Shown here in pieces: positions 4,045 through 17,712 of a stretch of 64,000 bases of DNA. The notes below the pieces were generated by a model. It saw only the letters and a program-made list of their open reading frames with translations, was not told the DNA's origin and ran no database searches. Numbering within the stretch: the first letter of the stretch is position 1; each line of letters opens with the position of its first letter. The stretch is taken from positions 1 to 64,000 of the IMG/VR virus record IMGVR_UViG_2974513524_000001; one strand, written 5' to 3'. Made by a program: the position numbers and the translations under genes. This DNA comes from a virus. Lineage: Duplodnaviria; Caudoviricetes.

Positions 4045-4524
4045 ATGATGCAAATCAAACTGACTGAAGTGGATATCCGTGCAGGTATTGCACTGTATCT
4101 GACCGACCGTGGTATTACCGGCGTCACTGCCGATAACCTGCAAGTCACCTTCACCGCTGGCCGTAAAGGCTCTGGTCTGACCGCTGACGTGGTAACCAAT
4201 CCATCGCAGAATGGTCAGGGCAAAGCTCAAGGCTCAGCACCAGTTCAAGCCAAGGAGAAATCCTCGGCTGACCTGCCTAAGCAATTGGGCGGTACTGCTG
4301 GTGAAACCTCCGGCGTAGCCGGTGCCGACGAAGCTGCCAAGAAATTGGAAGCTGAACGTCAAGAAGCTGATGCCAAAGCTCAACAAGCTGCCAAGGGTAA
4401 CGCCCCTGAAGTAGCTCCTGAGAAGGGCATCGAATCGCCACTGACTGAAGAACAGCCTGCCGCTCCGGTAGCTGAACAGAAGCCACAGGGCGATGCTCCA
4501 GAAGGCGGTAGCCTGTTCAGCTAA
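4045..4524 (+). CDS. Conserved-position hypothetical protein with a long disordered tail ending SLFS
   Basis: ORF with SD; short globular N-terminus followed by an A/E/Q/P-rich tail. Confidence 0.7.
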   Translation: MMQIKLTEVDIRAGIALYLTDRGITGVTADNLQVTFTAGRKGSGLTADVVTNPSQNGQGKAQGSAPVQAKEKSSADLPKQLGGTAGETSGVAGADEAAKKLEAERQEADAKAQQAAKGNAPEVAPEKGIESPLTEEQPAAPVAEQKPQGDAPEGGSLFS

Positions 4525-4546
4525 TAACTGAACTGGTTTAACAGAT

Positions 4547-4570
4547 AGCCCGACTAGTTCGGGCTTTTTG
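4547..4570 (+). terminator. Intrinsic terminator
   Basis: AGCCCGA-CTAGT-TCGGGCT followed by TTTT. Confidence 0.75.
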
Positions 4571-4581
4571 TTGGAGGTTAC

Positions 4582-5112
4582 ATGTCCAAAGCAGTATTAA
4601 AGCATTGGTACATCGCATCATTCATGGTCCAACATCCTGGCTTGTGGGTTCCCACTAGCTTTGTGTTTGGCTTAGAAGAAATGGGTGTAACTATTGCTGA
4701 TCTGCACCGTGCTAAACATGAAAACAATGTTCCTGAGAATTCAGTAATCATTGCAGTGTCTTACCTTGGCTTCAAAACCAATAAGGCAATGCAAGGTTTA
4801 CCGGATATCGATCCACCAACTGAACCTTCTGAGAAATTCAAAGAAGGTATGGTTGCTGCGATTAAGTATGTGGAATCGGATTCAAATCCTATTCTTAATC
4901 CTTACTCGCTTAACCCGGATAACGATCCTCAGCTCATGCACGATGCTGATGAGTGGAATCGTGGTTATCGTACTGTGCGAACTTCGCATTACGATCCCAA
5001 GTACGATACTGCTAAGCCAATGGTGCCAACTGTGCATAAAGAACAGTTGCCATCTACGCCGCAGAAAGAAGCTGTTAAAACTCCTTCTGAAGTCACGAAG
5101 AACACCAAGTAA
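4582..5112 (+). CDS. Hypothetical protein
   Basis: 176-aa ORF with SD GGAGG; contains an NPY..EWNRGY element. Confidence 0.7.
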   Translation: MSKAVLKHWYIASFMVQHPGLWVPTSFVFGLEEMGVTIADLHRAKHENNVPENSVIIAVSYLGFKTNKAMQGLPDIDPPTEPSEKFKEGMVAAIKYVESDSNPILNPYSLNPDNDPQLMHDADEWNRGYRTVRTSHYDPKYDTAKPMVPTVHKEQLPSTPQKEAVKTPSEVTKNTK

Positions 5113-5119
5113 TCACCCC

Positions 5120-5990
5120 TCAGAGACAACTGAGTTATCAAACCCGTAACAGCTTTGCCTCTTTGGCAACAGTCTGTATCGGAGGTAAGCCTTCTGGTTC
5201 CGTACCCGGCGAACTGTTGTGAGCTGTTCTTTATGCGATGTATTTTGTGAATACTGATTGCTAGTATCCTAAGAGACCAGGTTGTGATGTGAGCCTTTGG
5301 CCGTCATGTGAATAATTCCGGGCAGAGAACGAATCTATGGATCACAACAATCCTCATGCGAAGTGGCTTATAAGCAACGACTGGTAGGTTGGATACCTAC
5401 ATACTGGAAGGCTTCCCTCCGATGCAGAATGATCTGCATCATTCCTTTATTTACTTAAGCAAAAAGAACGTAAAGGATCTCTCTAGAAAATCGAATTAAA
5501 GCGCGGCGTTCTGAGAGTGATACACCCTCAATAGGCTACGAGTTAGTAGCAGAAAAAATGCTTGATACACAATCTAAGCCCGTTCCTCGAAGTCCGGGTA
5601 GTTTGCGTGAGCAAAATAATAGCTAGCGCTATTAGGCATATCGGTGATTCAAAAAGAAATGTTTGTGGCTACGAAAGTAGCAAAACAGGACGAGTTGGTT
5701 AAGAACTTAGTTCTGCGCGTGAACCGGAAACCATGTGAAGTGGTGCTTCACCCGATTTAACCGCCACCGCAAGCTGACCGAAAGGAGGTTTGTAACTAGG
5801 AGGTTATATCGGTGGGTACATAGTAGTTGCTGGTGTAAGTACGGGGTTCGATTCCCTGACTTGTCTCTTTTGGCAGGTAGGCTTTGGTAGCAATTAAGAC
5901 TTAGAACTAGAGGTTCGATTCCTCTCGCTATTATGTCCCCAACCGATGTAACCATCGACTGTCGTTGTAAAAAATACTTCCTATAGGAGC
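5120..5990 (+). ncRNA. Candidate large structured non-coding RNA (class unknown; compare ROOL/GOLLD)
   Basis: ~880 nt without a credible ORF in a gene-dense genome; 26-nt long-range duplex 5173-5198/5403-5428 with G-U pairs; many hairpins with GNRA loops; T-loop motifs. Boundaries approximate. Confidence 0.65.
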
Positions 5991-5996
5991 TACACC

Positions 5997-6593
5997 GTGT
6001 CCAATGCAAACCGTATCCACCTGTTGTCCCTCGCTGCTGGCACTCTTGGCCATATCGCCAATGAGTACAACAACGATGACGCCCGCTCAGCTCTCAAAGC
6101 TGTACTGGCTGATATCACCTCGTTAACCGAATCCGGTGCAGTTAAATTGACTGGCGAAGTCAACGTGGGCCCTGAAAAACCATCGTCGTACAAGAACGAC
6201 GAAGTACGCGCCACTGCTGGCCCTGAGCCAGAGCTGAGCGTAAAAACTCCGTGCGGCTGTGGTGATCCGTCCTGTGCCCTGATCGATGTGATCCTGGGCA
6301 ATCGCAGCGACTTCACCATCGAAAGCCTGCTGGTTTCCTTCAAGCAGGACTTCAACTCTAGTGAAGTTGCCACCATTGTGATCGACGCAATCGAGCGTGT
6401 TCAACAAGGTGTCCAATCCGGCGAGCTGAAGCCAAGCCTGGAATCGGCCAAGCGTCTGATCGAGCTGGCAGAAGAAGGCAAGAAGTTCGACGCTGAAGTT
6501 CGCGCTTCCAAAGGCCCACAATTTCACGTTGTGCGCAGCACTGCCGACTTCGAAAGCCTGCTGAACGAAATCTTCGGCAAAAAAGGCCAGTGA
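5997..6593 (+). CDS. Hypothetical protein with a CGCGDPSC motif
   Basis: SD AGGAG, GTG start, C-ending codon bias. Confidence 0.75.
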   Translation: MSNANRIHLLSLAAGTLGHIANEYNNDDARSALKAVLADITSLTESGAVKLTGEVNVGPEKPSSYKNDEVRATAGPEPELSVKTPCGCGDPSCALIDVILGNRSDFTIESLLVSFKQDFNSSEVATIVIDAIERVQQGVQSGELKPSLESAKRLIELAEEGKKFDAEVRASKGPQFHVVRSTADFESLLNEIFGKKGQ

Positions 6594-6916
6594 GTAATAC
6601 CCCACAGGGTATGCTCCCAGGCGACGAGTTCTCGCTACCAGACTGGGCGCAAGCTCAGTCGCGCAAGAAGAATGCACTGACTATTCCGGTAGAAGTGCAG
6701 GAAGCGATTGATAATCTGCTTTCAGTATGTGAAACCCACGGTGTACCTGTATTGACAGCTGTAGAAGGCTGTCAGGGTGTAGCCATGGATTCATCACTAG
6801 GCGTAGATCCGTCAATCGTATCTGCTGAAATGCTTATGTCACGTGCCATGCTCAGTAATAATCCTGAACATGTAATGCATGTGGCTATGGCACAGATGCA
6901 GGGTATGAAACCTTAA
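6590..6916 (+). CDS. Hypothetical protein
   Basis: GTGA overlap with the upstream stop. Confidence 0.7.
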   Translation: MSNTPQGMLPGDEFSLPDWAQAQSRKKNALTIPVEVQEAIDNLLSVCETHGVPVLTAVEGCQGVAMDSSLGVDPSIVSAEMLMSRAMLSNNPEHVMHVAMAQMQGMKP

Positions 6917-6928
6917 CCAAGGAACCGC

Positions 6929-7165
6929 ATGAAGAACGCCCTATGGGTGCTAGCCTGCATTTCTGTTGTCGTAGGAGTAATCCTCGCGATAGTCACAGTA
7001 TGGTTTGCCGTAGGACTTATTCTAAGGATCATCGGTTTCTTTGTAGCCATTATTGGCTTCATATTAATCGTTGCATTCGTAGTCTGGAGTTGGTGGACCG
7101 AATGTGTGGTTGAGCCGTACCTGCTGAAGCGTAAGCTAAAGCAGCAAAAGAATAAGCCCCAGTAA
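6929..7165 (+). CDS. Small membrane protein (two hydrophobic segments, basic tail)
   Basis: Hydrophobic sequence; SD AAGGA. Confidence 0.7.
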   Translation: MKNALWVLACISVVVGVILAIVTVWFAVGLILRIIGFFVAIIGFILIVAFVVWSWWTECVVEPYLLKRKLKQQKNKPQ

Positions 7166-7180
7166 TGGGGCTTGTTTTAT
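7151..7180 (+). terminator. Intrinsic terminator
   Basis: AATAAGCCCCA-GTAA-TGGGGCTTGTT followed by TTATT. Confidence 0.7.
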
Positions 7181-7184
7181 TAGT

Positions 7185-7261
7185 AGGTCATTAGCTCAAC
7201 AGGATAGAGCAGCTGCCTTCTAAGCGGACGTACACGGGTTCGAGTCCCGTATGACCTGCCA
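7185..7261 (+). tRNA. tRNA-Arg(UCU)
   Basis: Acceptor AGGTCAT/ATGACCT, D arm GCTC..GAGC, anticodon loop CT-TCT-AA, T arm ACGGG-TTCGAGT-CCCGT, encoded CCA. Confidence 0.9.
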
Positions 7262-7375
7262 TATCTATAACGAAGTCAGTCTGGCTGATGAGGTGAGAAT
7301 TAGAGACTCTTTCCGCAGCGTTTCAGGGGGTGGCCAGTAACACGGACAACCTAACAGACTGACCCCGTATAGATA
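7262..7375 (+). ncRNA. Candidate ~115-nt structured RNA between tRNAs
   Basis: Nested stems TATCTATA/TATAGATA, GTCAGTCTG/CAGACTGAC, AGGT/ACCT, TCCG/CGGA. Confidence 0.5.
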
Positions 7376-7382
7376 CATACAT

Positions 7383-7453
7383 GCCCAAAGTAGCTCAGAT
7401 GGTAGAGCACTCTTAGCCGAGAAGGTCAGTGGTTCGAATCCACTCTGAGGGCA
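7383..7453 (+). tRNA. Atypical tRNA-like element with a shrunken anticodon arm (no assignable anticodon)
   Basis: Canonical D arm TAGCTCAGATGGTAGAGCA and T arm AGTGG-TTCGAAT-CCACT; anticodon region only CTC-TTAGCC-GAG; acceptor has two mismatches; no CCA. Confidence 0.6.
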
Positions 7454-7461
7454 CTTATTAT

Positions 7462-7597
7462 GGGTGGTTTAGCTCAGTTGGTAGAGCACTAGAGCCAAAA
7501 AAGATCGTTTCTACGTAAGTAGACCCTAACGGGGGCAAAGCCAACGATCCGATCTTTGAGAGCCAGAGGTCGCCGGTTCAAGTCCGGCAACCACCCA
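7462..7597 (+). ncRNA. tRNA-like RNA with a structured insertion replacing the anticodon loop
   Basis: Perfect 8-bp acceptor GGGTGGTT/AACCACCC, canonical D and T arms, ~78 nt between D arm and variable loop containing a four-way junction. Confidence 0.75.
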
Positions 7598-7602
7598 ACC
7601 TT

Positions 7603-10600
7603 TTACAGGAATTTGAATACTGGCAACTCGTCCAGAGTGCCGAAGTATCCAAATGCCCCGTCTTGCAGTGGATTACGACCCAACCGGTTAGTCCAGCTGG
7701 AGTTAATCACCGAAGACATACCGTTGGTGTATGCATCAATGGCAATTGCACCCAGTACACGTGCTGGTTTTTCCTTAACCAGTCGCATGATGGTTTTCTG
7801 AATGCGCATGTAGTACTTGGTGAACATCACGATACCCATGTCGTTCAGATACTGGATCGAACGGTGCGAAGGCAAGTCATAGTTCACAAAGCTTTCCTCA
7901 GCCTGACGCAGAGCATCTGCTTGGCTTAGAGGGTTACGTGCACGATTCATAGTGTGCTGATACATAGCATAACGAGCAATCAAGTCAGACAGCTGTGTAG
8001 TCTGGCTCAAGAACTTGTAGGTGCTAGTATCGTGAGTCATATACACCTGCTTACCAGCTTCTTTCAGAAGCTTAGGTACGCGAGAGGTGTACTTACTCAC
8101 ACCACGTTGCAAGCGAGACTTATAGCTGTATTGGCTGTCGTCTGCTTCCACATCTTCAACGATAGTTGGCATCAAGCCAGCATCTACCAGAGGCTTAATC
8201 GGGTTACGCGCCAAGCGATCCTTGATCTGAGCCAGTTCAGCTTCCAAAGCTGGCTGACCTTCTGGAATGTAACCAATCTCGATTGCTTGTTCGATCTGCA
8301 TTTCCCGTTTACGGTCTTTGCGATAGTCCAACGCCCCTTTAAGTGCTACTGCGTGAGAGTTAATCATCTCTTTCGGAGATACACCCTCGATACCCAGCAA
8401 AGACAGGTTAGAAACGATGTTACCTACCAAGGTAGTCACGTTCTTCACAACCAGAATGTCTTTCATCTCTTTTACCAGCTCTTGCATAACGTCTTCGGCT
8501 TGACCGACACGCAGTGCAGCCTTATCCCCAAGAAGGCTACGAGTAACCATCACAAACAATTGTTCTGCCCAGTTACGATCACCATCGCCAGCACGAGACT
8601 TCAAGTCACGTTCAGGTTTAGCAAAAGCTTCAGTCAGACTGTATTTGCGATAGCCCATGATCATGTTCAGCTGATCTGCTGGAATCATCATGTTATCCGA
8701 CTTCCAAATACGCTTAATGTCGCGTTTGGTAGATTCAGGCAACAGACGATACAGCTCAGCAATCTCAGGATCTTTACTGTCCTTACCTACCTGCAAGTAG
8801 CTGCTAGGACGGTTATTGTAGTCGGCACGATACTGGTCATACATGGCACCTACCACATCAGCGTTTTGCTGTGCGGAGGCTACCTTGTCTACGATCTGAC
8901 CAGCAAATGTACCTAGCACCTGCTCCATGGCGTTCTCACGATCCAGCAGAGTATCCCGGTTGTTCTCGGTCATCATGTATCGGTAATCAGCAATGCGACC
9001 ATCTGGAGCAAGCACAGGCACCATCTTGCCAGCTTCTTGATTACGAGGATCGTAGCTGAGATCACGATTAAGCAAGGCATCAATCAAAGGCTGTTTAGCC
9101 TTACGGATCATGCTCTTATGCTGAGCCGAGGTTACTTGGTTTCCGTTGAGCAGGTTCACGCTGGCACGGTCAGGGCTAGAACCTTTACGGTGATAGCCAG
9201 TGTAAGAAAGTGCACCAGTGAGCAAGCCAGATTGGCCAGAGCCACGACGGGTAACCATTACACGGTCATCCTTCGTTTGGTCTGTCGAATCTTTTTGCAG
9301 CTCAGTCGCTAAACGGTAACCAGCTTTCTCAAATTTATCCAAGTCAGCACGAGCCACCAACATCACTTCGATGTTGTTGTCGTGGATTTCAGGTACATAG
9401 CCGGACTGTTGCAGAGCCTCTTGGCCTTTGAACAGATCGGTGGTGGACTTCTTCTGCAAGCCAGAATGCAACTTGAGAATCATGTCGATACCGTTCTGAC
9501 CATTGCCACGATTAGCTTCGGTGCGGAATGCCTGCATAGCTAGTGCTTTGTCATAAGTACCGGTGTAGCTGTGTGCATATACAGCCAGCAGTTGATCCAG
9601 CAGAGGTACAAGCTGTTTCACATTGGTTTGAGTACCTGCTTTCTTGGTGCCGTACATCTCAGCAATGTTGCGAGTGTTCAGCATCAAGTTGTGGGACACG
9701 TTGCCACCTACCACTTTGTGGTAAGCCAGATCTTTAGTCGCAGCGGTCAGGTAACCAAAGTCAGGGCTCATTGCCTGTACTTGTGCTTCCAGATCTTTGC
9801 GATGCTTGGTCATTTCAGCAGGACTTTCCATAAGCTCTTTCAGGCGGTCGATACCTACGGCATCTGCCAGTGCGCTCATGTTGGTACGCAAGAATACCCG
9901 TGTAATAGAGTCTTTAGTCTCTTTGTTCAGGTATTCCCCGCCATCCTTAAACGAAGCCATGACCTGTGCAACAGTGTTTTCGATGTGATCTTTACGATCC
10001 TTCTCGATAGCCTTTGCACCTTTGAACAGTGCGTCAGCAATACGGTTGCCATCATGCAGACCACGCATCTCAGTGATGGCCCCCATGATCACGCCATGCT
10101 TGTCTTTGAATGCACGGTCACGCAATACAGTGGTGTGATCCAAGATCGCACCTACACGGTCACCTGCCAAGGCAGAGATACCGGCACCTGCTACACGTAC
10201 ATAGGCAGAGCTGTTCTGTTTGAAGAATGGAATCTTGCCAAATGCCTCAGCGCGTTCACGAACATTGTCCGCTACGCTGCCGATAGCCATCTCAACCTGA
10301 TCCATACCGGACAGCTTGTTACGCAGCATTTCATCCTTGTGCTTGGCTTCAATGTCTACCAGCTGATCCAGCAGGGTAGCCAGTGCAAAGTCAGCACGAG
10401 TGTTAGGCGATACCTTGGTATGCAAGGAAGCCAGTTTAGTCATCACTCGACGGAACAGTTCTACCAGACGACCAGCAATTGGCAGTGAAGCCAATGGCAC
10501 AGTGGCGTCAGAGGTACGGAAAGTGAGGATGTTCTTCACTTCTTCACTTGCGATACCCATTGCAGCGAACTGGGTTACGTTGCTGTTTTTAAACAAGAAT

Positions 10601-13600
10601 TCATGCTTCTGCTGAGCAATATCCTTCTCAGTAGGAGTAGCAGTTGCCCAATCACCTTTATGGAAGTTCTCTGGCTTAAGAGCCTTACGACCATCGTTGA
10701 ACAGGTTGGTCAAAGCTTGACGCACGAACACAGTGTTCGGGTTAGTCATAGCTGCTTCCAAGCTAGCCTGTACCGATTCCAATACGAACCCTTCTTGCTG
10801 ATTCACATTGAATGGCGAGGCCAGTGCACGCGAAGCAAATGGCTTAGTGCCTGTGTCCAAGGACTTCAGGTAAACATCCATTGGAGTGATAGCACGATTC
10901 GCAGCAGCTTCTTCTTTGAAGGCGCCATAAGGCCCGTAGAGAGGTTCTACCAAGTTGGTCATAACATCTTTCAGATGTGCTTGGTGCGCCTCACTGGCGA
11001 TACGTGGAGAGGCTCCTTCCAGTGCTGTTACCACTTCTTGTGCAGTCATTGCATTGATGTGATCTACAGCATCTTCATAGGCCAAAGTCTTGGCATCACG
11101 AGTCTTACGCAGATCAGCAGCAGCTTTAAACAAGCCAGCTGACTGAGCTACCAGCATACCCAAGCCAGTTTCATTAGCCTTGGTGTTGCTACCACGGAAC
11201 AACATACGAGCCAGCGAATCAACGAAGGCACGCATACCGGACCAAAGACCTTTGGCACGGCTTTGAATCTGAATGTTAGCCAGTACTTCTTGTTGGAACC
11301 CTTGGTTGGTCAAACCCCAAGCCAGCAGTTCATGTACGTTGCCTACTGCATTCTGGTATTTACCAGACAGGGAGCCATTGGCTTCCATCAGTTCAGCAGC
11401 TTTCAATCGCAGAGCTTCCAGATCGGCTACAGCCTGACCTACCGGATTGTTCTTGCCAGTATTTTCATCTACCAAACCAGCCAGAGCAGCATGGACCAAT
11501 TCATGGGTCAGCATCTCAGGAGTGATACCCGACTCTACAAAGTCAGGGGATTTGACGTAGATAGCAGCAGCACCGGCTTCTTGGTGATACCAGCCACGTG
11601 CCTTACTCACACCAGTACCCAATGCACCATCAGGGGCAGTGTCTGGAGTGATGTAGTTCACTGGCATGCTTGGCTTAACTGTACGTTTGATCATCTCCAG
11701 CAATTTGCCAGTGAATGGATCAGCATTCAGTGCAGCAAGCGAATCAACCAGTTCAGCAGCAGTCAGCTTGTTGGTAGCCAATACGTTGACCAGATCAACA
11801 TTCGACTGCACCAGTGGAGTACCAACCTCACCCCAAACACTGAGTTTGCGAGTGTTGTCATTCACTTGATTTACCAGTTCAGCAGCTTGATGCTCAGGCA
11901 ATACTGCTTTAGCAGCTTCCAACGTAACGTTGTTAGTCAGCATTGCTTCACGTACAGCTTGTACTTCTGGAGTTTGTTCCAGACGATCAAGAGTGTTTAG
12001 CGTGGTAGCAGGGCTGAGAGTTTCAACAGAGTTACGGCTCAATGCCTTAGCAGCAGCAGCTTTTAGATCAAGTGGCTGAGCTTTAGTCAGTTGATCGATG
12101 TTAGCAGCAGATTGCTCAGCAGCACTGTCGAAGTTTTCACCAATCGAATCCAGCTGTTTCAGGGCAGCAGTACGGTCTGCATCGGTAACGATGTAGGAAC
12201 CACCTTCTGTTGCGTACTGACCTACAGCCTGCATCGAAGCCAGCATGTTCAGCTTCTCGGTATCAGCTGCACGAGCAGTGTCACGAATAGCGGTCAGCTG
12301 TTCTTCAAAGGTGCCCAGCTTCTTCTGTGCCATTTCATTGGCCAGAGTCTTCAGCTTAGGTTGGATACGGGCAGCCAACTCAGGATCTTGCATCAGGTTG
12401 TCCAAGCCAGCCAACACGCGTTCCAGAGTCGAAACCATCTCAGCTGGTGCCGAGTAGTTCAGCATGTTATCGAAGGTGGCTTTGTTCAGCTTCTGGCCAA
12501 CTTCTTGTGCTTGGTGCAGGTTTACACCCAAGGCATCGTGCACGTTCAATGCATTCATTTCACCGTATACCGACGAAGCAATCGACGAGTCAGTCGAGTG
12601 AATCGAGGTAATGAACGGTGCTACACCTGGGTCAGTAGCCTTGGTACGCAGACCATTTACCGAAGTGGTTGCACGATTAACTACAGAACCATCTTCTTGG
12701 TAGGTAGGCACTGCATCACCGAAGTAAGCCTGAGAGGTGAATGGGTCGGTACGATCCAGTTCACGTTTCGACTTGCTCATGTTCATACCAGCGGCCAATT
12801 GGTCACTTTGCTTGGACATTGCAGTTTGCAAGATAGGCTGCATATCGGTCAGACGATCATTGATCGCTTTGACCTCAGCAGTACTCAACGAGCTGAGAGC
12901 AGTTTGCTTACCAGTCTTACCGGTACGACGTGCAATGCTAGTCGAGGTTTCCTCAGCTTGTTCAGTCAGAGCTGTGTAAGCAGCATCGTACAGACGGAAA
13001 GCCAGTTGAGCAGTCTTATTCACAGTGTCACGACGAGCGATGAACAGACCGTAGTTGTCTTTCAGCGAGTCTTCTACTTTGCTACCCAGCATCTCATGGA
13101 ATGTAGCTTTGATTGCGTCCACTTGACCTTGAGTCAGGTTGGTTTGCATTGCTACATCGATACCCATGTTCGCATCAAGGTGCAAACCTTTGAAGCGAGT
13201 CAGAGTGTTCACAGCGTTCAGCAGAGTACGCATTGCCTCAGGATCTTTAGCCTTGGCAGCATCTTCCATTTTCGAGTAGATGGATTCAATGAAACCATCT
13301 GCCATGCCCTGTACAGCAGTAAGGGTGTTCGAACCGAACATCATTGCAGTCAGTGGCTTTTTGATGACATTACGACCTTTCGAAGATACAGCGCCTTCTT
13401 CTGTCAGCAACTGGCCAGTAACTACCTGCAAAGCGTTAAGCAAAGCTGGGTCAGTACCATCCAGACGCTTAAGAGCATCAGACACAGTAGATTCATAGAG
13501 GTCATGGTTACCCATGCCTTTGTAGTCGTTGAACTGGATCAGTTCATTGCCATTGGCATCCAACGCACCCTGCGGAATGAAACCACCTTGGGTCATTACG

Positions 13601-16600
13601 TCGAAGCCTTTAGCACCCAGCATCATCAGGGACAGCATTGGACCGTTAGTCAAACCATCCACTTCTGCCATCAGAGTGGTGTTGAACTTACCGTCTTGTG
13701 CGTTCTGCATATGAGCCAGAGATACCAGAGCATCCAGCGAATGCATGTTCTCGCCAGCTTCTGCTACACCAGCAACGATTACATCTTCGTTAGGGTTGGT
13801 TGCTTCACCACGCAGGATTGTAGCCAGCTCGTTTACAGCAGCTTGGATACCCGGAGTGTTGACCTTAGCATCGTACGCAGGTAGCACCAGTGCAGTGGAC
13901 TTGGCTTCAGTTTTCACACCGAAGGCTTCCAGTACACGCAGCTTGAAGTTGTTGAATTGAACTGGATCATTGATATCTACAGACGACTCCCAACCTTCCA
14001 TAGCCAGCATATGGCGATGAACCTTGGAGGTCTGTGGGTTGATCACGTTAGTGTTCAGACCTACACGCTGTGGCATCCATACAGAGCGACCGAAGTACAG
14101 AGGTTGCTCAATACCTTCAGTGGTTGGGTCATTAGTCATCTTCTCTACGAAGGACTTGAAGTTATCCACCTGATCAATCAAGCCAGCATTCTTGGCATCA
14201 CGCGAAGCCAGGTTATATGCATGGGTTGGGTTGTCAGTAGTGTCGATAACACCAGCAATCTTGTAGAGAGCATCAGACGACAGAACACCAGCAATCTGGT
14301 TCATATCCTGACGTACGAAGTGCTTTTTAGAGCCTTCTTTGTCCAGAATCTTAGCCAGAGTGGATGGAATCTCACGGTTGGTACGCTTAGCGTAAGCCTG
14401 ATCGAATTTCACTGGTTCATAGCTTGGCTCTTTGCCAGCAGCTTCTACAGAGAACAGTTTGTTTACAACAGACTGCGAGCCAGTAGTGGCTTCGCGAATC
14501 TTACGTACAACCTCGTTGGCTACATCACGGTCATTCACTTTCTCACTGGCTACAGTGACGAAGGTGTGTACTGCATTGGAGACAGCAGGATCTTGAGTGT
14601 TCATCAGACGTTGCATGGTTGCATCGCTGATCTCAGTACGCTTGATTAGGCCAGCACGGGCCATTGCACCAATGGCTTGAATGCCAAGTGCAGTTTCCAG
14701 TCGCGCAGTGTCAGACGCCGACGCTTCTGGCTTAGCTCGCAGGCCAAGGGCTTGTGCAATGCGTGCACCAAGTTGGTTGGCAACAACGTCTTCACGTGTA
14801 CCAATCCGACCAAGAGTGCGGTAGGCATCAGGGGATACTTCATCATCAATGTCTCGGTTCAGGATCATATTGATCCCGGCATCAGTGTTGTAGAGGTTCC
14901 CAGCATTTTCGCTCAGCCACGAGAACATGCCGTAGCTGATAGCAGTACGGGCGTTTTCGTCTACCGAACCATCCTCATTAATGAGGTACTGGGCGTAGTC
15001 TTGGAAACGGAACTCAGGGCTACGACGACGAGTGAAACCAGCAACTACGTGCTTATCTACCAGTCGAGCGAAGCCAAAGAAGTTATTGATAGCTGCACGT
15101 TGAGGGCCAGCAATCTCACCTTTCTGAGCCAGGAAGTCTTGCACACGTACTTCACCAGCACGAAGTTTGGAAGCGAAGTTAGGCACCGAAACCAATGGTT
15201 TATTGGATGCGTCCAGCTCCGATCCAGCGTTCTGAGTGAACAACTCACCTACAAGGTTTACTTGTTGACGATTTTCAGCAGTAACAGCTTCACCAGTTGA
15301 TTGCTTAACAGCAGTCAGCTCACCAGTTTCATTTACAACTGGCGCTGGTTCTTCGGTTGTTTGTTGTTCTGCGTTAGGTACAGCAGTGTCAACCCGCTGA
15401 TCATCACTGACAGCAGTATCAGTAGGAACGGTAGTAGTTTCAGCATCTGTAGTCTCTTGTACCGGAGCAGCCTGTACTTCTGGCAGCTTAGGAGCAGCAG
15501 TAACCATGGCTTGGAATGCATTGGCATTCTTGGTCAGCACGTCAGCTTCAGCAGCTACGTCAGCAGCCAAGCGGAAAGAGGTTGGACCTACCATCAGGCC
15601 ACCAGCTTTACGAGTGTCAGCCGGACCCATATCAGTCTGTACCCAGTTCCCAGTGGAATCAGGTGCAATGCTGATTTGGTTGTTAGTGCCTTTCACTTGT
15701 TCGTAAGCTTGTGCCAAAGCAGTAGCTTTACTCACACGACTGGTAGCAAAGCTATTCAGGGAATCAACCTGAGCTTGTGCAGCTTCGGTATTGCCATCAG
15801 TGATGGCCATGCGAATAGCGTTACGGTACTGCTCCAAGCCTTTGAAGCCAGAACCACCGTTGATCACATCCGAACGTACACCTGCCCGACCTTTAAAAGC
15901 ATCAGTAGCTTCTTGAGCTTCACTGAACGAAGCCATTGCTTGGCGTTGCTCAGTAGACAAGCTTTCATTACCTGCCATGGCTTGAGCCATCTCAGTAGTG
16001 ATAGCGTCCGGGTTGGTCATTGTCAGGGTAAGTACACGGTCAGCAGCTTGTACATCACCAGTGTTGGCTTGCTCTACGAGCGAGTCCACATCAGGAGTGC
16101 TATCCGTAAACAGACGCTGCGAAGCTTCCTGTACAGAATCCAGTTGGTTTTGCAGTTGGAACGCTGTGGCTTCATCAGCTTTACGTTTAGCTGGGGTGTA
16201 AGCCTCTGCTGCTTTGATAGCATCAGCTACTGCTTTCTTATCAGAAGCAGTACCGTTGTTATCTTCAAGCCATTGAGCAGTCTCACGAAGATCAGCTACG
16301 CCTTCCTCAGAGTACATTTCCATACGTGCTTGTACGTTGGACAAGTCACTGTTCAAGTCTTTGTAGATCTGATCTGCTTTAGCAGTGTTAGCGTCTACAG
16401 TGGCTTGGTCAGCATCTTTACTCAGCTCACCCAGAGCTTGTACAGCCCGAGTTGGATCAACCCGAGCAAGATCGCTGATATCGCCAGAAGCAACGGACTG
16501 TTGGAAAAGGTCTTCCACATTTTGGTTAGCCTCAATTTTTTCAGCGGCAGAGTTTGCAGTGCCAGCCGCACGCGAACCACCAGCAGCAGCCAATTGGAAG

Positions 16601-17712
16601 TTGCCACCAACCAGTGCACCAATAGTTGCGCCCTCCACGATTTCCTCAATCGTAGGTTCTTCAAGTTTTGCACGAGCTTCTGCATAGGTCTGGTAACCCT
16701 CAGTTACGCCTTCGCGTGTACCTGCACCAGCAACCGATGCAGCACCTGCTCCAATACCTTTGCCAGAGTTCTTGAACCCTTTGATAAGGGATACGTCACC
16801 AACCATCTCAGCAGCAGCTGCGGATGCGGCAAACAAGCCCATCTCAGCACGCTCAGATTCGTTAGGAAGTTGACCTTCATTCTTGTCTGCGTATTCAGTG
16901 ATACCTTCACGGTAGGCATCGAAGCCATAACCAGCATTGGTTGCAGTGAGTGCAGCAGGGTTGTACATGGCTGCAACGATCTGAGGTACGTTTTCTACAA
17001 CGTATTCAGTAACAGCGCCTGGGTCTTGTGCACCAGTGCTGATTGCACTGCCGATAGTACGGAATAAACCAGCAGCACCATCTTTAGCAGCATCTGTGTA
17101 CTCACCTTTATCGAACGATTCCTTGGCGTCACGAATTTGCTGAACACTGTCAGCAGTTTCATTACGCAGGTCATCAGACAGGCGATCACGTCGAGTAGTA
17201 TCGACAATCCCGGAGATATCAAAGAAGTCAGCGACTTTCTTACCTACTTGCTGCAAGCCAGTAGAGCCTTGCAGACGTTCACGGTAAGTCTGTGGAATAC
17301 CGTCATCAAGAGGTGCAGTTTGATCCAACAGTGCATCATCACCCGGCTGAACTTCACCAGTGAGAGAACGGTTATATGCTTGGATTTGAGCTTCTGGCAC
17401 AGTGCCTTGAGCCATGCCAGCAATCAGGTCAATTGGCAGAGTAGCCACGTTACCTACAGTACGGCTAGCACCAGACAACAGAGAAGCGCCAAGGTTAATG
17501 CCCTGAGCAGCAGTATCTTCTGCGTCAAGGCCCATCTTACCAATCCAGGCATCTTGCACATTGCGCTCTTTACGAGCCTGCAAGGTAGCCATATCGGCAA
17601 GCTTGATCTCGGCTACATCAGCAAAAAGGGGGCGGTACTCTGTAGCACCAACCCCCTGAGCTTCTTGCACCGGGTCAAGGATGGAAGTGTAACCATTTCC
17701 AGTCTTGGCCAC
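7603..17712 (-). CDS. Virion-encapsidated RNA polymerase, N4 gp50-like (vRNAP)
   Basis: 3369 aa; T7-like motifs A (EVDGLTNGP), B (RNVIKKPLTAMMFGS) and C (NVHDA); no Cys seen on reading; hallmark of Schitoviridae. Confidence 0.97.
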   Translation of the reverse strand: MAKTGNGYTSILDPVQEAQGVGATEYRPLFADVAEIKLADMATLQARKERNVQDAWIGKMGLDAEDTAAQGINLGASLLSGASRTVGNVATLPIDLIAGMAQGTVPEAQIQAYNRSLTGEVQPGDDALLDQTAPLDDGIPQTYRERLQGSTGLQQVGKKVADFFDISGIVDTTRRDRLSDDLRNETADSVQQIRDAKESFDKGEYTDAAKDGAAGLFRTIGSAISTGAQDPGAVTEYVVENVPQIVAAMYNPAALTATNAGYGFDAYREGITEYADKNEGQLPNESERAEMGLFAASAAAAEMVGDVSLIKGFKNSGKGIGAGAASVAGAGTREGVTEGYQTYAEARAKLEEPTIEEIVEGATIGALVGGNFQLAAAGGSRAAGTANSAAEKIEANQNVEDLFQQSVASGDISDLARVDPTRAVQALGELSKDADQATVDANTAKADQIYKDLNSDLSNVQARMEMYSEEGVADLRETAQWLEDNNGTASDKKAVADAIKAAEAYTPAKRKADEATAFQLQNQLDSVQEASQRLFTDSTPDVDSLVEQANTGDVQAADRVLTLTMTNPDAITTEMAQAMAGNESLSTEQRQAMASFSEAQEATDAFKGRAGVRSDVINGGSGFKGLEQYRNAIRMAITDGNTEAAQAQVDSLNSFATSRVSKATALAQAYEQVKGTNNQISIAPDSTGNWVQTDMGPADTRKAGGLMVGPTSFRLAADVAAEADVLTKNANAFQAMVTAAPKLPEVQAAPVQETTDAETTTVPTDTAVSDDQRVDTAVPNAEQQTTEEPAPVVNETGELTAVKQSTGEAVTAENRQQVNLVGELFTQNAGSELDASNKPLVSVPNFASKLRAGEVRVQDFLAQKGEIAGPQRAAINNFFGFARLVDKHVVAGFTRRRSPEFRFQDYAQYLINEDGSVDENARTAISYGMFSWLSENAGNLYNTDAGINMILNRDIDDEVSPDAYRTLGRIGTREDVVANQLGARIAQALGLRAKPEASASDTARLETALGIQAIGAMARAGLIKRTEISDATMQRLMNTQDPAVSNAVHTFVTVASEKVNDRDVANEVVRKIREATTGSQSVVNKLFSVEAAGKEPSYEPVKFDQAYAKRTNREIPSTLAKILDKEGSKKHFVRQDMNQIAGVLSSDALYKIAGVIDTTDNPTHAYNLASRDAKNAGLIDQVDNFKSFVEKMTNDPTTEGIEQPLYFGRSVWMPQRVGLNTNVINPQTSKVHRHMLAMEGWESSVDINDPVQFNNFKLRVLEAFGVKTEAKSTALVLPAYDAKVNTPGIQAAVNELATILRGEATNPNEDVIVAGVAEAGENMHSLDALVSLAHMQNAQDGKFNTTLMAEVDGLTNGPMLSLMMLGAKGFDVMTQGGFIPQGALDANGNELIQFNDYKGMGNHDLYESTVSDALKRLDGTDPALLNALQVVTGQLLTEEGAVSSKGRNVIKKPLTAMMFGSNTLTAVQGMADGFIESIYSKMEDAAKAKDPEAMRTLLNAVNTLTRFKGLHLDANMGIDVAMQTNLTQGQVDAIKATFHEMLGSKVEDSLKDNYGLFIARRDTVNKTAQLAFRLYDAAYTALTEQAEETSTSIARRTGKTGKQTALSSLSTAEVKAINDRLTDMQPILQTAMSKQSDQLAAGMNMSKSKRELDRTDPFTSQAYFGDAVPTYQEDGSVVNRATTSVNGLRTKATDPGVAPFITSIHSTDSSIASSVYGEMNALNVHDALGVNLHQAQEVGQKLNKATFDNMLNYSAPAEMVSTLERVLAGLDNLMQDPELAARIQPKLKTLANEMAQKKLGTFEEQLTAIRDTARAADTEKLNMLASMQAVGQYATEGGSYIVTDADRTAALKQLDSIGENFDSAAEQSAANIDQLTKAQPLDLKAAAAKALSRNSVETLSPATTLNTLDRLEQTPEVQAVREAMLTNNVTLEAAKAVLPEHQAAELVNQVNDNTRKLSVWGEVGTPLVQSNVDLVNVLATNKLTAAELVDSLAALNADPFTGKLLEMIKRTVKPSMPVNYITPDTAPDGALGTGVSKARGWYHQEAGAAAIYVKSPDFVESGITPEMLTHELVHAALAGLVDENTGKNNPVGQAVADLEALRLKAAELMEANGSLSGKYQNAVGNVHELLAWGLTNQGFQQEVLANIQIQSRAKGLWSGMRAFVDSLARMLFRGSNTKANETGLGMLVAQSAGLFKAAADLRKTRDAKTLAYEDAVDHINAMTAQEVVTALEGASPRIASEAHQAHLKDVMTNLVEPLYGPYGAFKEEAAANRAITPMDVYLKSLDTGTKPFASRALASPFNVNQQEGFVLESVQASLEAAMTNPNTVFVRQALTNLFNDGRKALKPENFHKGDWATATPTEKDIAQQKHEFLFKNSNVTQFAAMGIASEEVKNILTFRTSDATVPLASLPIAGRLVELFRRVMTKLASLHTKVSPNTRADFALATLLDQLVDIEAKHKDEMLRNKLSGMDQVEMAIGSVADNVRERAEAFGKIPFFKQNSSAYVRVAGAGISALAGDRVGAILDHTTVLRDRAFKDKHGVIMGAITEMRGLHDGNRIADALFKGAKAIEKDRKDHIENTVAQVMASFKDGGEYLNKETKDSITRVFLRTNMSALADAVGIDRLKELMESPAEMTKHRKDLEAQVQAMSPDFGYLTAATKDLAYHKVVGGNVSHNLMLNTRNIAEMYGTKKAGTQTNVKQLVPLLDQLLAVYAHSYTGTYDKALAMQAFRTEANRGNGQNGIDMILKLHSGLQKKSTTDLFKGQEALQQSGYVPEIHDNNIEVMLVARADLDKFEKAGYRLATELQKDSTDQTKDDRVMVTRRGSGQSGLLTGALSYTGYHRKGSSPDRASVNLLNGNQVTSAQHKSMIRKAKQPLIDALLNRDLSYDPRNQEAGKMVPVLAPDGRIADYRYMMTENNRDTLLDRENAMEQVLGTFAGQIVDKVASAQQNADVVGAMYDQYRADYNNRPSSYLQVGKDSKDPEIAELYRLLPESTKRDIKRIWKSDNMMIPADQLNMIMGYRKYSLTEAFAKPERDLKSRAGDGDRNWAEQLFVMVTRSLLGDKAALRVGQAEDVMQELVKEMKDILVVKNVTTLVGNIVSNLSLLGIEGVSPKEMINSHAVALKGALDYRKDRKREMQIEQAIEIGYIPEGQPALEAELAQIKDRLARNPIKPLVDAGLMPTIVEDVEADDSQYSYKSRLQRGVSKYTSRVPKLLKEAGKQVYMTHDTSTYKFLSQTTQLSDLIARYAMYQHTMNRARNPLSQADALRQAEESFVNYDLPSHRSIQYLNDMGIVMFTKYYMRIQKTIMRLVKEKPARVLGAIAIDAYTNGMSSVINSSWTNRLGRNPLQDGAFGYFGTLDELPVFKFL

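Follow-up and report, generated by a model that had tools for sequence, protein, structure and literature searches.

The 64-kb window analysed here (positions 1 to 64,000 of IMG/VR virus record IMGVR_UViG_2974513524_000001, 74,895 bp in total) encodes a hallmark of N4-like phages, a 3,369-aa virion RNA polymerase (vRNAP), at 7603..17712 on the minus strand. To the left of this gene lies an 884-nt gap, 5113-5996, bounded by a gene matching phrog_7212 (4582..5112, plus strand, stop at 5112) and by a gene for a 198-aa protein of no assigned function (5997..6593, GTG start at 5997), relatives of which were not found in the viral contig collection searched. The gap is non-coding, in agreement with an initial annotation that saw ~880 nt without a credible open reading frame (ORF). 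The longest plus-strand ORF within it comprises 51 aa (5735..5890), each plus-strand frame holds 15-23 stop codons, and none of its nine small ORFs matches PHROG; a 100-aa minus-strand ORF overlaps it (5707..6009). Most of its indels are not multiples of three, namely 11 of 12 against Pseudomonas phage 98PfluR60PP (Littlefixvirus) and 25 of 28 against a more diverged IMG/VR locus, L006. Neither iterons nor tandem repeats were found in the gap, which resolves into the following features.

5113..5996, plus strand: ORF-free gap of 884 nt, a putative non-coding RNA locus by ORF scan, indels and PHROG search
5119..5134, plus strand: hairpin H1 (CTCAG, loop AGACAA, CTGAG), directly past the upstream stop codon
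5146..5172, plus strand: variable tip V1 (TTGCC-TCTTT-GGCAA), read from the pairwise alignment
5173..5428, plus strand: 5' domain, in which P3 encloses an unpaired block, V2 and P3a
5173-5198 with 5403-5428, plus strand: duplex P3 of 25 pairs, 5 of them changed on both sides; 98.6% of cells paired
5199-5221, plus strand: conserved unpaired block inside P3
5222-5375, plus strand: variable region V2 inside P3
5384..5400, plus strand: hairpin P3a, loop TGGAT, 2 of 6 pairs changed on both sides
5421..5440, plus strand: local 8-bp hairpin GATGCAGA-ATGA-TCTGCATC with a terminator-like score
5443..5477, plus strand: hairpin P4, TCCTTTAT...GTAAAGGA, with an inner CTT/AAG stem, pair probability 0.97/0.96
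5478..5714, plus strand: central hairpin cluster comprising P5, hairpins 5578-5599, 5602-5615, 5617-5634 and 5668-5681, and V3
5535-5550, plus strand: hairpin P5, GCTAC-GAGTTA-GTAGC, 2 of 5 pairs changed on both sides
5686-5715, plus strand: variable hairpin V3
5715..5822, plus strand: 3' core (Ha, X, Hb and Y), matched by covariance models R1 and R2
5735-5751, plus strand: hairpin Ha, GTGAAG/CTTCAC
5752-5762, plus strand: strand X, which pairs with Y around Hb
5769-5793, plus strand: helix Hb, inner loop invariant, tetraloop at the tip (CC-GAAA-GG)
5802-5815, plus strand: strand Y, complementary to X and Z
5816..5938, plus strand: variable tip V4, window type, with a 9-bp stem (5818-5826/5928-5936), hairpins 5842-5858 and 5909-5925, and a middle hairpin
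5939..5953, plus strand: strand Z, which pairs with Y and closes V4; 14 pairs, 100% paired in three sequences

Within the phage collection the element has a single match, 98PfluR60PP, at 85.7% identity over 85% of the query. The two copies consist of near-identical blocks and four fully replaced patches, V1 (5146-5172), V2 (5222-5375), V3 (5692-5709) and V4 (5816-5938); since the neighbouring genes are 91-95% identical, the conserved blocks prove little alone. The copy in L006 (L006:6521-7393), found via a gp46-like gene (84% amino acid identity), is full length and far more diverged. Its flanking proteins are 46% and ~29% identical to those of the window, with no blastn match, whereas blocks of the element itself retain 77% (5376-5472) and 90% (5724-5753) identity.

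We aligned these three full-length copies with MAFFT, fitting the alignment to no structure, and scored seven helices (H1, P3, P3a, P5, Ha, Hb and Y-Z) chosen from RNAalifold and partition-function predictions on the same three sequences. Across the 70 bp of these helices, 99.5% of 209 cells are paired, compared with 35.9-43.1% in slid controls, and 15 pairs have changed on both sides, a count reached in none of 500 shuffles. The stem of H1, for example, reads CATGG/CCATG in L006 around an unchanged loop, so that three of its five pairs differ on both sides, and P3 has a pair probability of 0.91 in both close phages. The gap as a whole also folds better than expected, at -278.7 kcal/mol on the plus strand against -243.1 +/- 8.9 for shuffles (z -4.00; 0 of 20 as good). 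Because the minus strand gives an equivalent z of -4.03, energy alone leaves the strand undecided. The strand is indicated instead by G-U pairs, which occupy 18 of the 209 cells here and 39 of 207 in an eight-sequence alignment of the 3' core and would be A-C on the minus strand, and by the tetraloop caps, which exchange one stable tetraloop for another between homologs. The locus is thus a plus-strand structured RNA under selection, and the initial annotation, which pointed to GNRA tetraloops and G-U wobbles, had the strand right.

The individual stems proposed at the outset fared differently. All are present in the sequence, and covariation supports the P3 duplex, P5, GTGAAG/CTTCAC, CC-GAAA-GG and CCGATTTAACC/GGTTATATCGG. 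By contrast, AACAGCT/AGCTGTT (5148/5222), CAACAGT/ACTGTTG (5167/5213) and GTTGTGAT/ATCACAAC (5281/5341) are not maintained in relatives, and the first two of these cross P3. At the position of V1, 98PfluR60PP carries a different hairpin, GGCGA-CGACC-TCGCC, and at that of P4, L006 reads TTCTAC...GTAGAA. Apart from P5, the central cluster does not vary in 98PfluR60PP and has diverged in L006, where the hairpins at 5602, 5617 and 5668, identical in 98PfluR60PP, cannot be aligned. Two loops among these three change from one GNRA sequence to another.

Comparison with Rfam 15 (4227 models) places nothing inside the gap at gathering thresholds in the 64-kb window, as the initial annotation had anticipated in proposing a class not yet catalogued. 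Its other suggestion, a distant member of the ROOL or GOLLD class, has to be dropped, as neither model matches at E<=10 in 4900-7700 or at E<=1 in loci L001, L003, L006 and L060. No other Rfam family is found in the homologous stretches of these four loci either. Group I and II introns, RNase P RNA, tmRNA, 6S RNA and known riboswitches likewise have no Rfam match in the gap above threshold. The best scores there at E<=10 are at chance level: mascRNA-menRNA, 18.4 bits (threshold 42.5); RAGATH-12, 16.1 (75); RFPL3-AS1_1, 12.7 (70); and cyano_tmRNA, 12.4 (70). The tRNA model finds nothing in the gap at E<=10, ARAGORN calls no tRNA or tmRNA there, and V4 has no cloverleaf. By these Rfam and ARAGORN results, the element cannot be recognised as a ROOL, GOLLD, intron, RNase P RNA or tmRNA. 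GOLLD and ROOL are large RNAs of phages and prophages in Rfam. Like them, the element is phage-borne, several hundred nucleotides long, helix-rich, non-coding and near tRNA genes; it differs in that their covariance models do not match, a contiguous fold has no support and the locus is confined to a few N4-like Pseudomonas-type phages.

The tRNA model matches this region of the window only at 7185-7258, 7384-7452 and 7463-7596, and ARAGORN only at 7185-7261. The plus-strand matches at 7384-7452 (37.6 bits) and 7463-7596 (48.4 bits) are thus not called by ARAGORN. The latter has perfect acceptor, D and T arms with ~70 extra nt at the position of the anticodon arm, and 98PfluR60PP lacks the stretch 7461-7601. 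These two may be tRNA-like RNAs or an interrupted tRNA.

The most widely conserved part of the locus is its 3' domain. Searches with nhmmer gave weak matches, confined to the 3' part, in three further loci, among them that of phage phCDa (Shizishanvirus; locus L003). A covariance model of 5715-5822 (R1) matches eight loci among 85 sources at E<=5e-7, and a rebuilt model (R2) matches the same eight and none besides; R1 and R2 give the window 129 and 106 bits, respectively. A degenerate core pattern found seven stretches in IMG/VR viral contigs, three of them in new contigs, and none in metagenome contigs, which brings the family to 11 members from Littlefixvirus, Shizishanvirus and IMG/VR contigs, divided into two clades. 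Exact scans of viral, metagenome and genome contigs with conserved 20-25-mers of the element returned no matches. Over eight sequences of the 3' core, in an alignment fitted to the model and so biased toward structure, 97.6% of 207 cells are paired (slid controls 41-48%), and 13 of 26 pairs have changed on both sides, more than in any of 500 shuffles; two G-U pairs in Hb are invariant in all eight. When the 3' domains of eight phCDa-clade sequences are aligned independently with MAFFT, 99.7% of 320 cells are paired and both sides have changed in 9 of 40 pairs, a count that again none of 500 shuffles equals. The 3' domain is therefore a new RNA family of Pseudomonas-type N4-like phages. Covariation among homologs and a plus-strand fold energy of the whole gap better than that of shuffles, the absence of which would have counted against the initial annotation, are both seen.

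The second distinctive property of the 3' domain is that X-Y and Y-Z are mutually exclusive helices, both of which are conserved. The CCGATTTAACC/GGTTATATCGG stem (5752/5802) competes with 5802-5815/5939-5953, and X-Y and Y-Z each pair at 10-11 of 11 positions in all 11 members, where the Z of phCDa was taken as the syntenic strand from the phCDa-clade alignment. Between the two clades, Y differs at most positions with its pairings retained, and 6 of the 11 X-Y pairs have changed on both sides. Within the phCDa clade, X-Y shows only one such change, a count that 68 of 500 shuffles reach, and the helix equivalent to Y-Z is 99.4% paired in eight sequences. Y-Z has more Watson-Crick pairs than X-Y and extends into a stem, S1, in every lineage. 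The 5' domain offers a second three-strand set, 5173/5421/5433, which is conserved and varies too little for a covariation test; the base of P3 and the hairpin at 5421-5440 are alternatives to one another because both need strand 5421-5428.

Helix-exchange RNA switches include riboswitch expression platforms, attenuators and the refolding of hok mRNA. The present element resembles them in the two conserved, exclusive partners of Y and in the 5173/5421/5433 set. It differs in that the analysis identified neither a conserved ligand pocket nor a leader peptide or an antisense partner, and in that the terminator-like tail is not conserved: compared with an attenuator, alternative helices are present and conserved, and the U-rich tail after 5421-5440 is missing in L006. 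Inspection by eye for a conserved motif supporting an Rsm/CsrA sponge, or sequestration of a ribosome-binding site by Y or Z, revealed none, and both ideas were set aside.

In the phCDa clade, the gap measures ~1 kb and its part outside the 3' domain is conserved within the clade. This part shows no similarity to the 5' and central parts of the window's element by blastn or nhmmer, and the phCDa gap matches only itself in a blastn search of the phage collection. Upstream of the shared 3' domain, the clade (L003:2528-3354; L060:6450-7320) carries ~0.7 kb of conserved non-coding blocks of its own. One of these, ~60 alignment columns long and unrelated to the window's 5' part, is nearly invariant in five of five sequences. 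In addition, a T-arm-like hairpin at about 2962-2992 of the phCDa locus is followed by seven bases and GCCA, resembling the 3' end of a tRNA; neither ARAGORN nor Rfam calls a tRNA or tmRNA in that gap.

Comparison of close relatives shows that the locus is modular, with exchangeable parts. A swapped cassette lies between X and Z, which form a pair of near-identical direct repeats. In the window, V4 folds well (z -4.05; 0 of 200 shuffles as good), its hairpins 5842-5858 and 5909-5925 resemble tRNA T-arms, and it has no blastn match in the phage collection. Look-alikes occur at L048:3287-3424 (nhmmer E 5.8e-32) and L171:2782-2874 (E 3.2e-11). These two-T-arm modules stand free in other phage contigs, one of which, the N4-like L048, carries it behind a terminator-like hairpin; the L171 module and the window's V4 have a 14-nt stretch between the arms in common, and in the two-sequence alignment of the module the closing stem is misaligned. 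The T-arm-like pair under a long closing stem recalls YrlA-type Y RNAs (RF02553) and other two-T-arm tRNA-like RNAs. The likeness is limited to the tip 5816-5938, which is nested here in another RNA's helix and replaced by an unrelated tip in other members, and the YrlA model does not match V4, its lone weak match lying at 7399-7517 (21.1 bits, threshold 69).

Parts of the stretch occur in 20 public sequencing runs, and exchange was examined directly in Logan contigs from four public runs, compared over 4400-6700. Contigs of run X1, with no differences over 5089-5570, and of run X2 otherwise match the window and diverge at the edges of V4 into a tip like that of 98PfluR60PP and L006. Runs X4 and X17 carry the window-type V4, and in X4 the segment 5525-5709 is swapped for 161 unrelated letters. 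Tips and sub-domains are thus exchanged between close relatives at helix boundaries. The X17 contig (191 nt, covering 5682-5870) comes from a library labelled RNA-Seq; it is rated as probably DNA, and we give it no weight for expression.

The genomic position of the element is shared more widely than its sequence. A phrog_7212 gene stands directly upstream of the gap in the window (E 2e-57), L006, L060, phCDa, LUZ7 (ORF69, E 6.9e-65) and PEV2 (gp66, E 4.9e-76). Downstream of it, all six have a non-coding gap and then a handful of small genes, frequently with tRNA genes, ahead of the convergent vRNAP gene. Excerpts of Putzeys et al. 2022 (PMC9163698) describe heavy late transcription of the LUZ7 orf69-orf70 gap into RNAs mostly shorter than 250 nt (sRNA1-3), two with a common start site and one probably arising by processing. 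The PEV2 record annotates an ORF in this slot as "very strongly transcriptionally expressed". The LUZ7 gap is like the window's in slot, strand, freedom from ORFs and richness in hairpins. It differs in length (398 nt against 884 nt), and LUZ7 and PEV2 have a common sigma-70-like TTGACT promoter in their gaps, none of which was found in the window's element; blastn and nhmmer (E<=10) detect no similarity between the element and the LUZ7 and PEV2 loci. We conclude that a conserved site for RNA genes lies directly behind the phrog_7212 gene. The initial view that nothing of the kind is described from Schitoviridae accordingly needs qualifying: the LUZ7 hotspot in those excerpts (PMC9163698) occupies the same slot, although by our tests it is not homologous. 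Our literature search on N4-like and Schitoviridae phages together with non-coding or structured RNA found no description of the element; among the titles and abstract openings listed for the phage and genus names none deals with RNA, and the words "non-coding" and "intergenic" are absent from the 98PfluR60PP genome paper (PMC6325676).

The phrog_7212 protein, which lacks a Pfam match and is encoded immediately upstream of the slot in four genera, could be a partner of the slot RNAs. A survey of gap sizes downstream of gp46 (61 of 80 loci) was discarded as confounded by the opposite-strand vRNAP gene. Good intrinsic-terminator-like hairpins lie at 4547-4565 (plus strand), between a 159-aa gene and the phrog_7212 gene, and at 7154-7173 (minus strand), just left of the tRNA-Arg gene; the latter is consistent with leftward late transcription stopping short of the RNA locus.

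Taking these results together, we lean toward a modular small-RNA locus, giving somewhat better than an even chance to separately folding, exchangeable domains that form a precursor of stable small RNAs. At least three domains would be involved: a 5' long-stem domain (5113-5440), the central hairpin cluster (5443-5714) and the 3' domain (5715-5953). In the last, Y would pair either with X upstream or with Z downstream, Y-Z closing a swappable tip that in the window is tRNA-like with two T-arms, and the exchange may refold the domain once Z has been transcribed or removed. By analogy with the LUZ7 slot, the locus would be strongly transcribed. Host RNases would then cut the long duplexes and the tRNA-like tip to release stable small RNAs, which may in turn act in trans in middle or late infection.

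Several observations weigh against this preferred reading, and its last two steps, cleavage and action in trans, are conjecture. The promoter scan found no plus-strand site, including sigma-70-like ones, inside the element. The sole terminator-like hairpin within it is 5421-5440, which is identical in L006 with its U-rich tail lost there, so that no convincing terminator is seen. The argument from expression is one of position, because homology with the LUZ7 and PEV2 loci (L004 and L005) is not detectable, models R1 and R2 giving no match there at E<=1; small RNAs at the slot are shown for LUZ7, in the excerpts cited above, and for it only, and public runs holding the stretch include none listed as RNA. 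The full-length homologs number three, two of them close, and the counts for the eight-sequence 3' core carry the bias noted above. In the central part, fold z values range only from -0.93 to -2.07, and the stretch 5572-5720 (z -0.93; matched by 28 of 200 shuffles) folds no better than shuffles. Finally, a variation-supported helix linking the 5', central and 3' parts was not found in the three sequences, which is no proof of separate RNAs.

The same absence bears on the initial proposal of one large ornate RNA, of which the structured, non-coding and selected locus is borne out and the single ~880-nt molecule is not, the parts being exchangeable and no joining helix supported. In favour of a multi-domain RNA of ~0.85 kb, which would be a new class comparable to ROOL and GOLLD, are the size, the abundance of helices capped by GNRA and other stable loops, the variable peripheral tips on a conserved core, the whole-region fold (z -4.0) and the tRNA genes 1.2 kb downstream, and a 7-bp helix joining 5111-5117 with 5643-5649 is predicted in the two close phages. 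That helix is invariant between them, and inspection by eye finds no counterpart in L006. A kissing partner of the H1 loop occurs only in the window's V4 and is absent from L001 and L006. Together with the lack of any Rfam match even at E<=10, the coupling of the 3' domain to an unrelated 5' part in the phCDa clade and the wholesale replacement of the central part in X4, this makes such a molecule unlikely. Slightly more doubtful still is an elaborated form, in which a single ~0.85-kb RNA of a new class would use its two helix-exchange sets to refold with transcription or RNase cutting, as a timing device where the middle and late gene blocks of N4-like phages meet, with plug-in tips such as the double tRNA mimic recruiting host tRNA enzymes.

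A lesser though appreciable chance, well short of that of the small-RNA locus, goes to a cis-acting untranslated region of a polycistronic middle mRNA, whether an RNase processing or stability element, a transcription insulator ending the rightward gene block or a translation switch for the next gene. The distance from the end of Z to the next gene's ribosome-binding site and start codon is ~20 nt in the phCDa clade and ~44 nt in the window clade, the two three-strand sets resemble expression platforms, and no promoter of its own was found. Perfect duplexes as long as the 25 pairs of P3 belong to the size class cut by double-strand-specific RNases, and they count for this alternative together with Y-Z plus S1. 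The 3' domain is common to both clades although their downstream genes are unrelated, with no alignment by BLASTP, which argues against a gene-specific leader. Furthermore, Y and Z both lie clear of the ribosome-binding site, such signals need far less than 880 nt, and excerpts of PMC9163698 give the LUZ7 slot its own start site and discrete small RNAs. We regard as very improbable a DNA-level element, either hairpin promoters for phage RNA polymerases or a replication or recombination site. N4-like phages use DNA hairpin promoters (PMC9163698), as described for N4 early and LUZ7 early and middle promoters, several 5-bp hairpins with 4-6-nt loops do lie in the gap, and the X and Z direct repeats flank the swapped cassette. 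The pairings, however, bridge distances of 130-230 nt, and many of the conserved G-U pairs would become G-T or A-C mismatches at the DNA level. The loops alternate between stable RNA tetraloops, iteron-like repeats were not found, and the stems are unlike those given for LUZ7 middle promoters, which are GC-rich with at least 6 bp and 3-4-nt loops (PMC9163698). Least credible of all is that the gap is a now functionless remnant of lost genes or of decayed tRNA genes. The T-arm-like hairpins in V4 and the phCDa gap and the mosaic of replacement patches might suggest it, but compensatory change has kept the base pairs across genera, blocks of the element exceed the flanking genes in conservation, and neither a PHROG match (0 of 9 ORFs) nor a tRNA-model match at E<=10 points to former genes.

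N4-like phages serve as models of transcription, and several are candidates for phage therapy; to our knowledge, their non-coding RNAs are almost unknown. The results caution that a long hairpin-rich gap is not automatically a single ornate RNA. They also indicate that the slot behind the phrog_7212 gene is a general site for RNA genes in at least four genera. In LUZ7, this slot has so far been known only as an unexplained small-RNA hotspot. In the Pseudomonas fluorescens-type phages, it carries an uncatalogued, covariation-supported domain with a two-state helix and a socket for tips swapped by recombination. At ~110-240 nt, the 3' domain offers a small and mutable target in the cultured phages 98PfluR60PP and phCDa for studying the function of structured RNA in phages.

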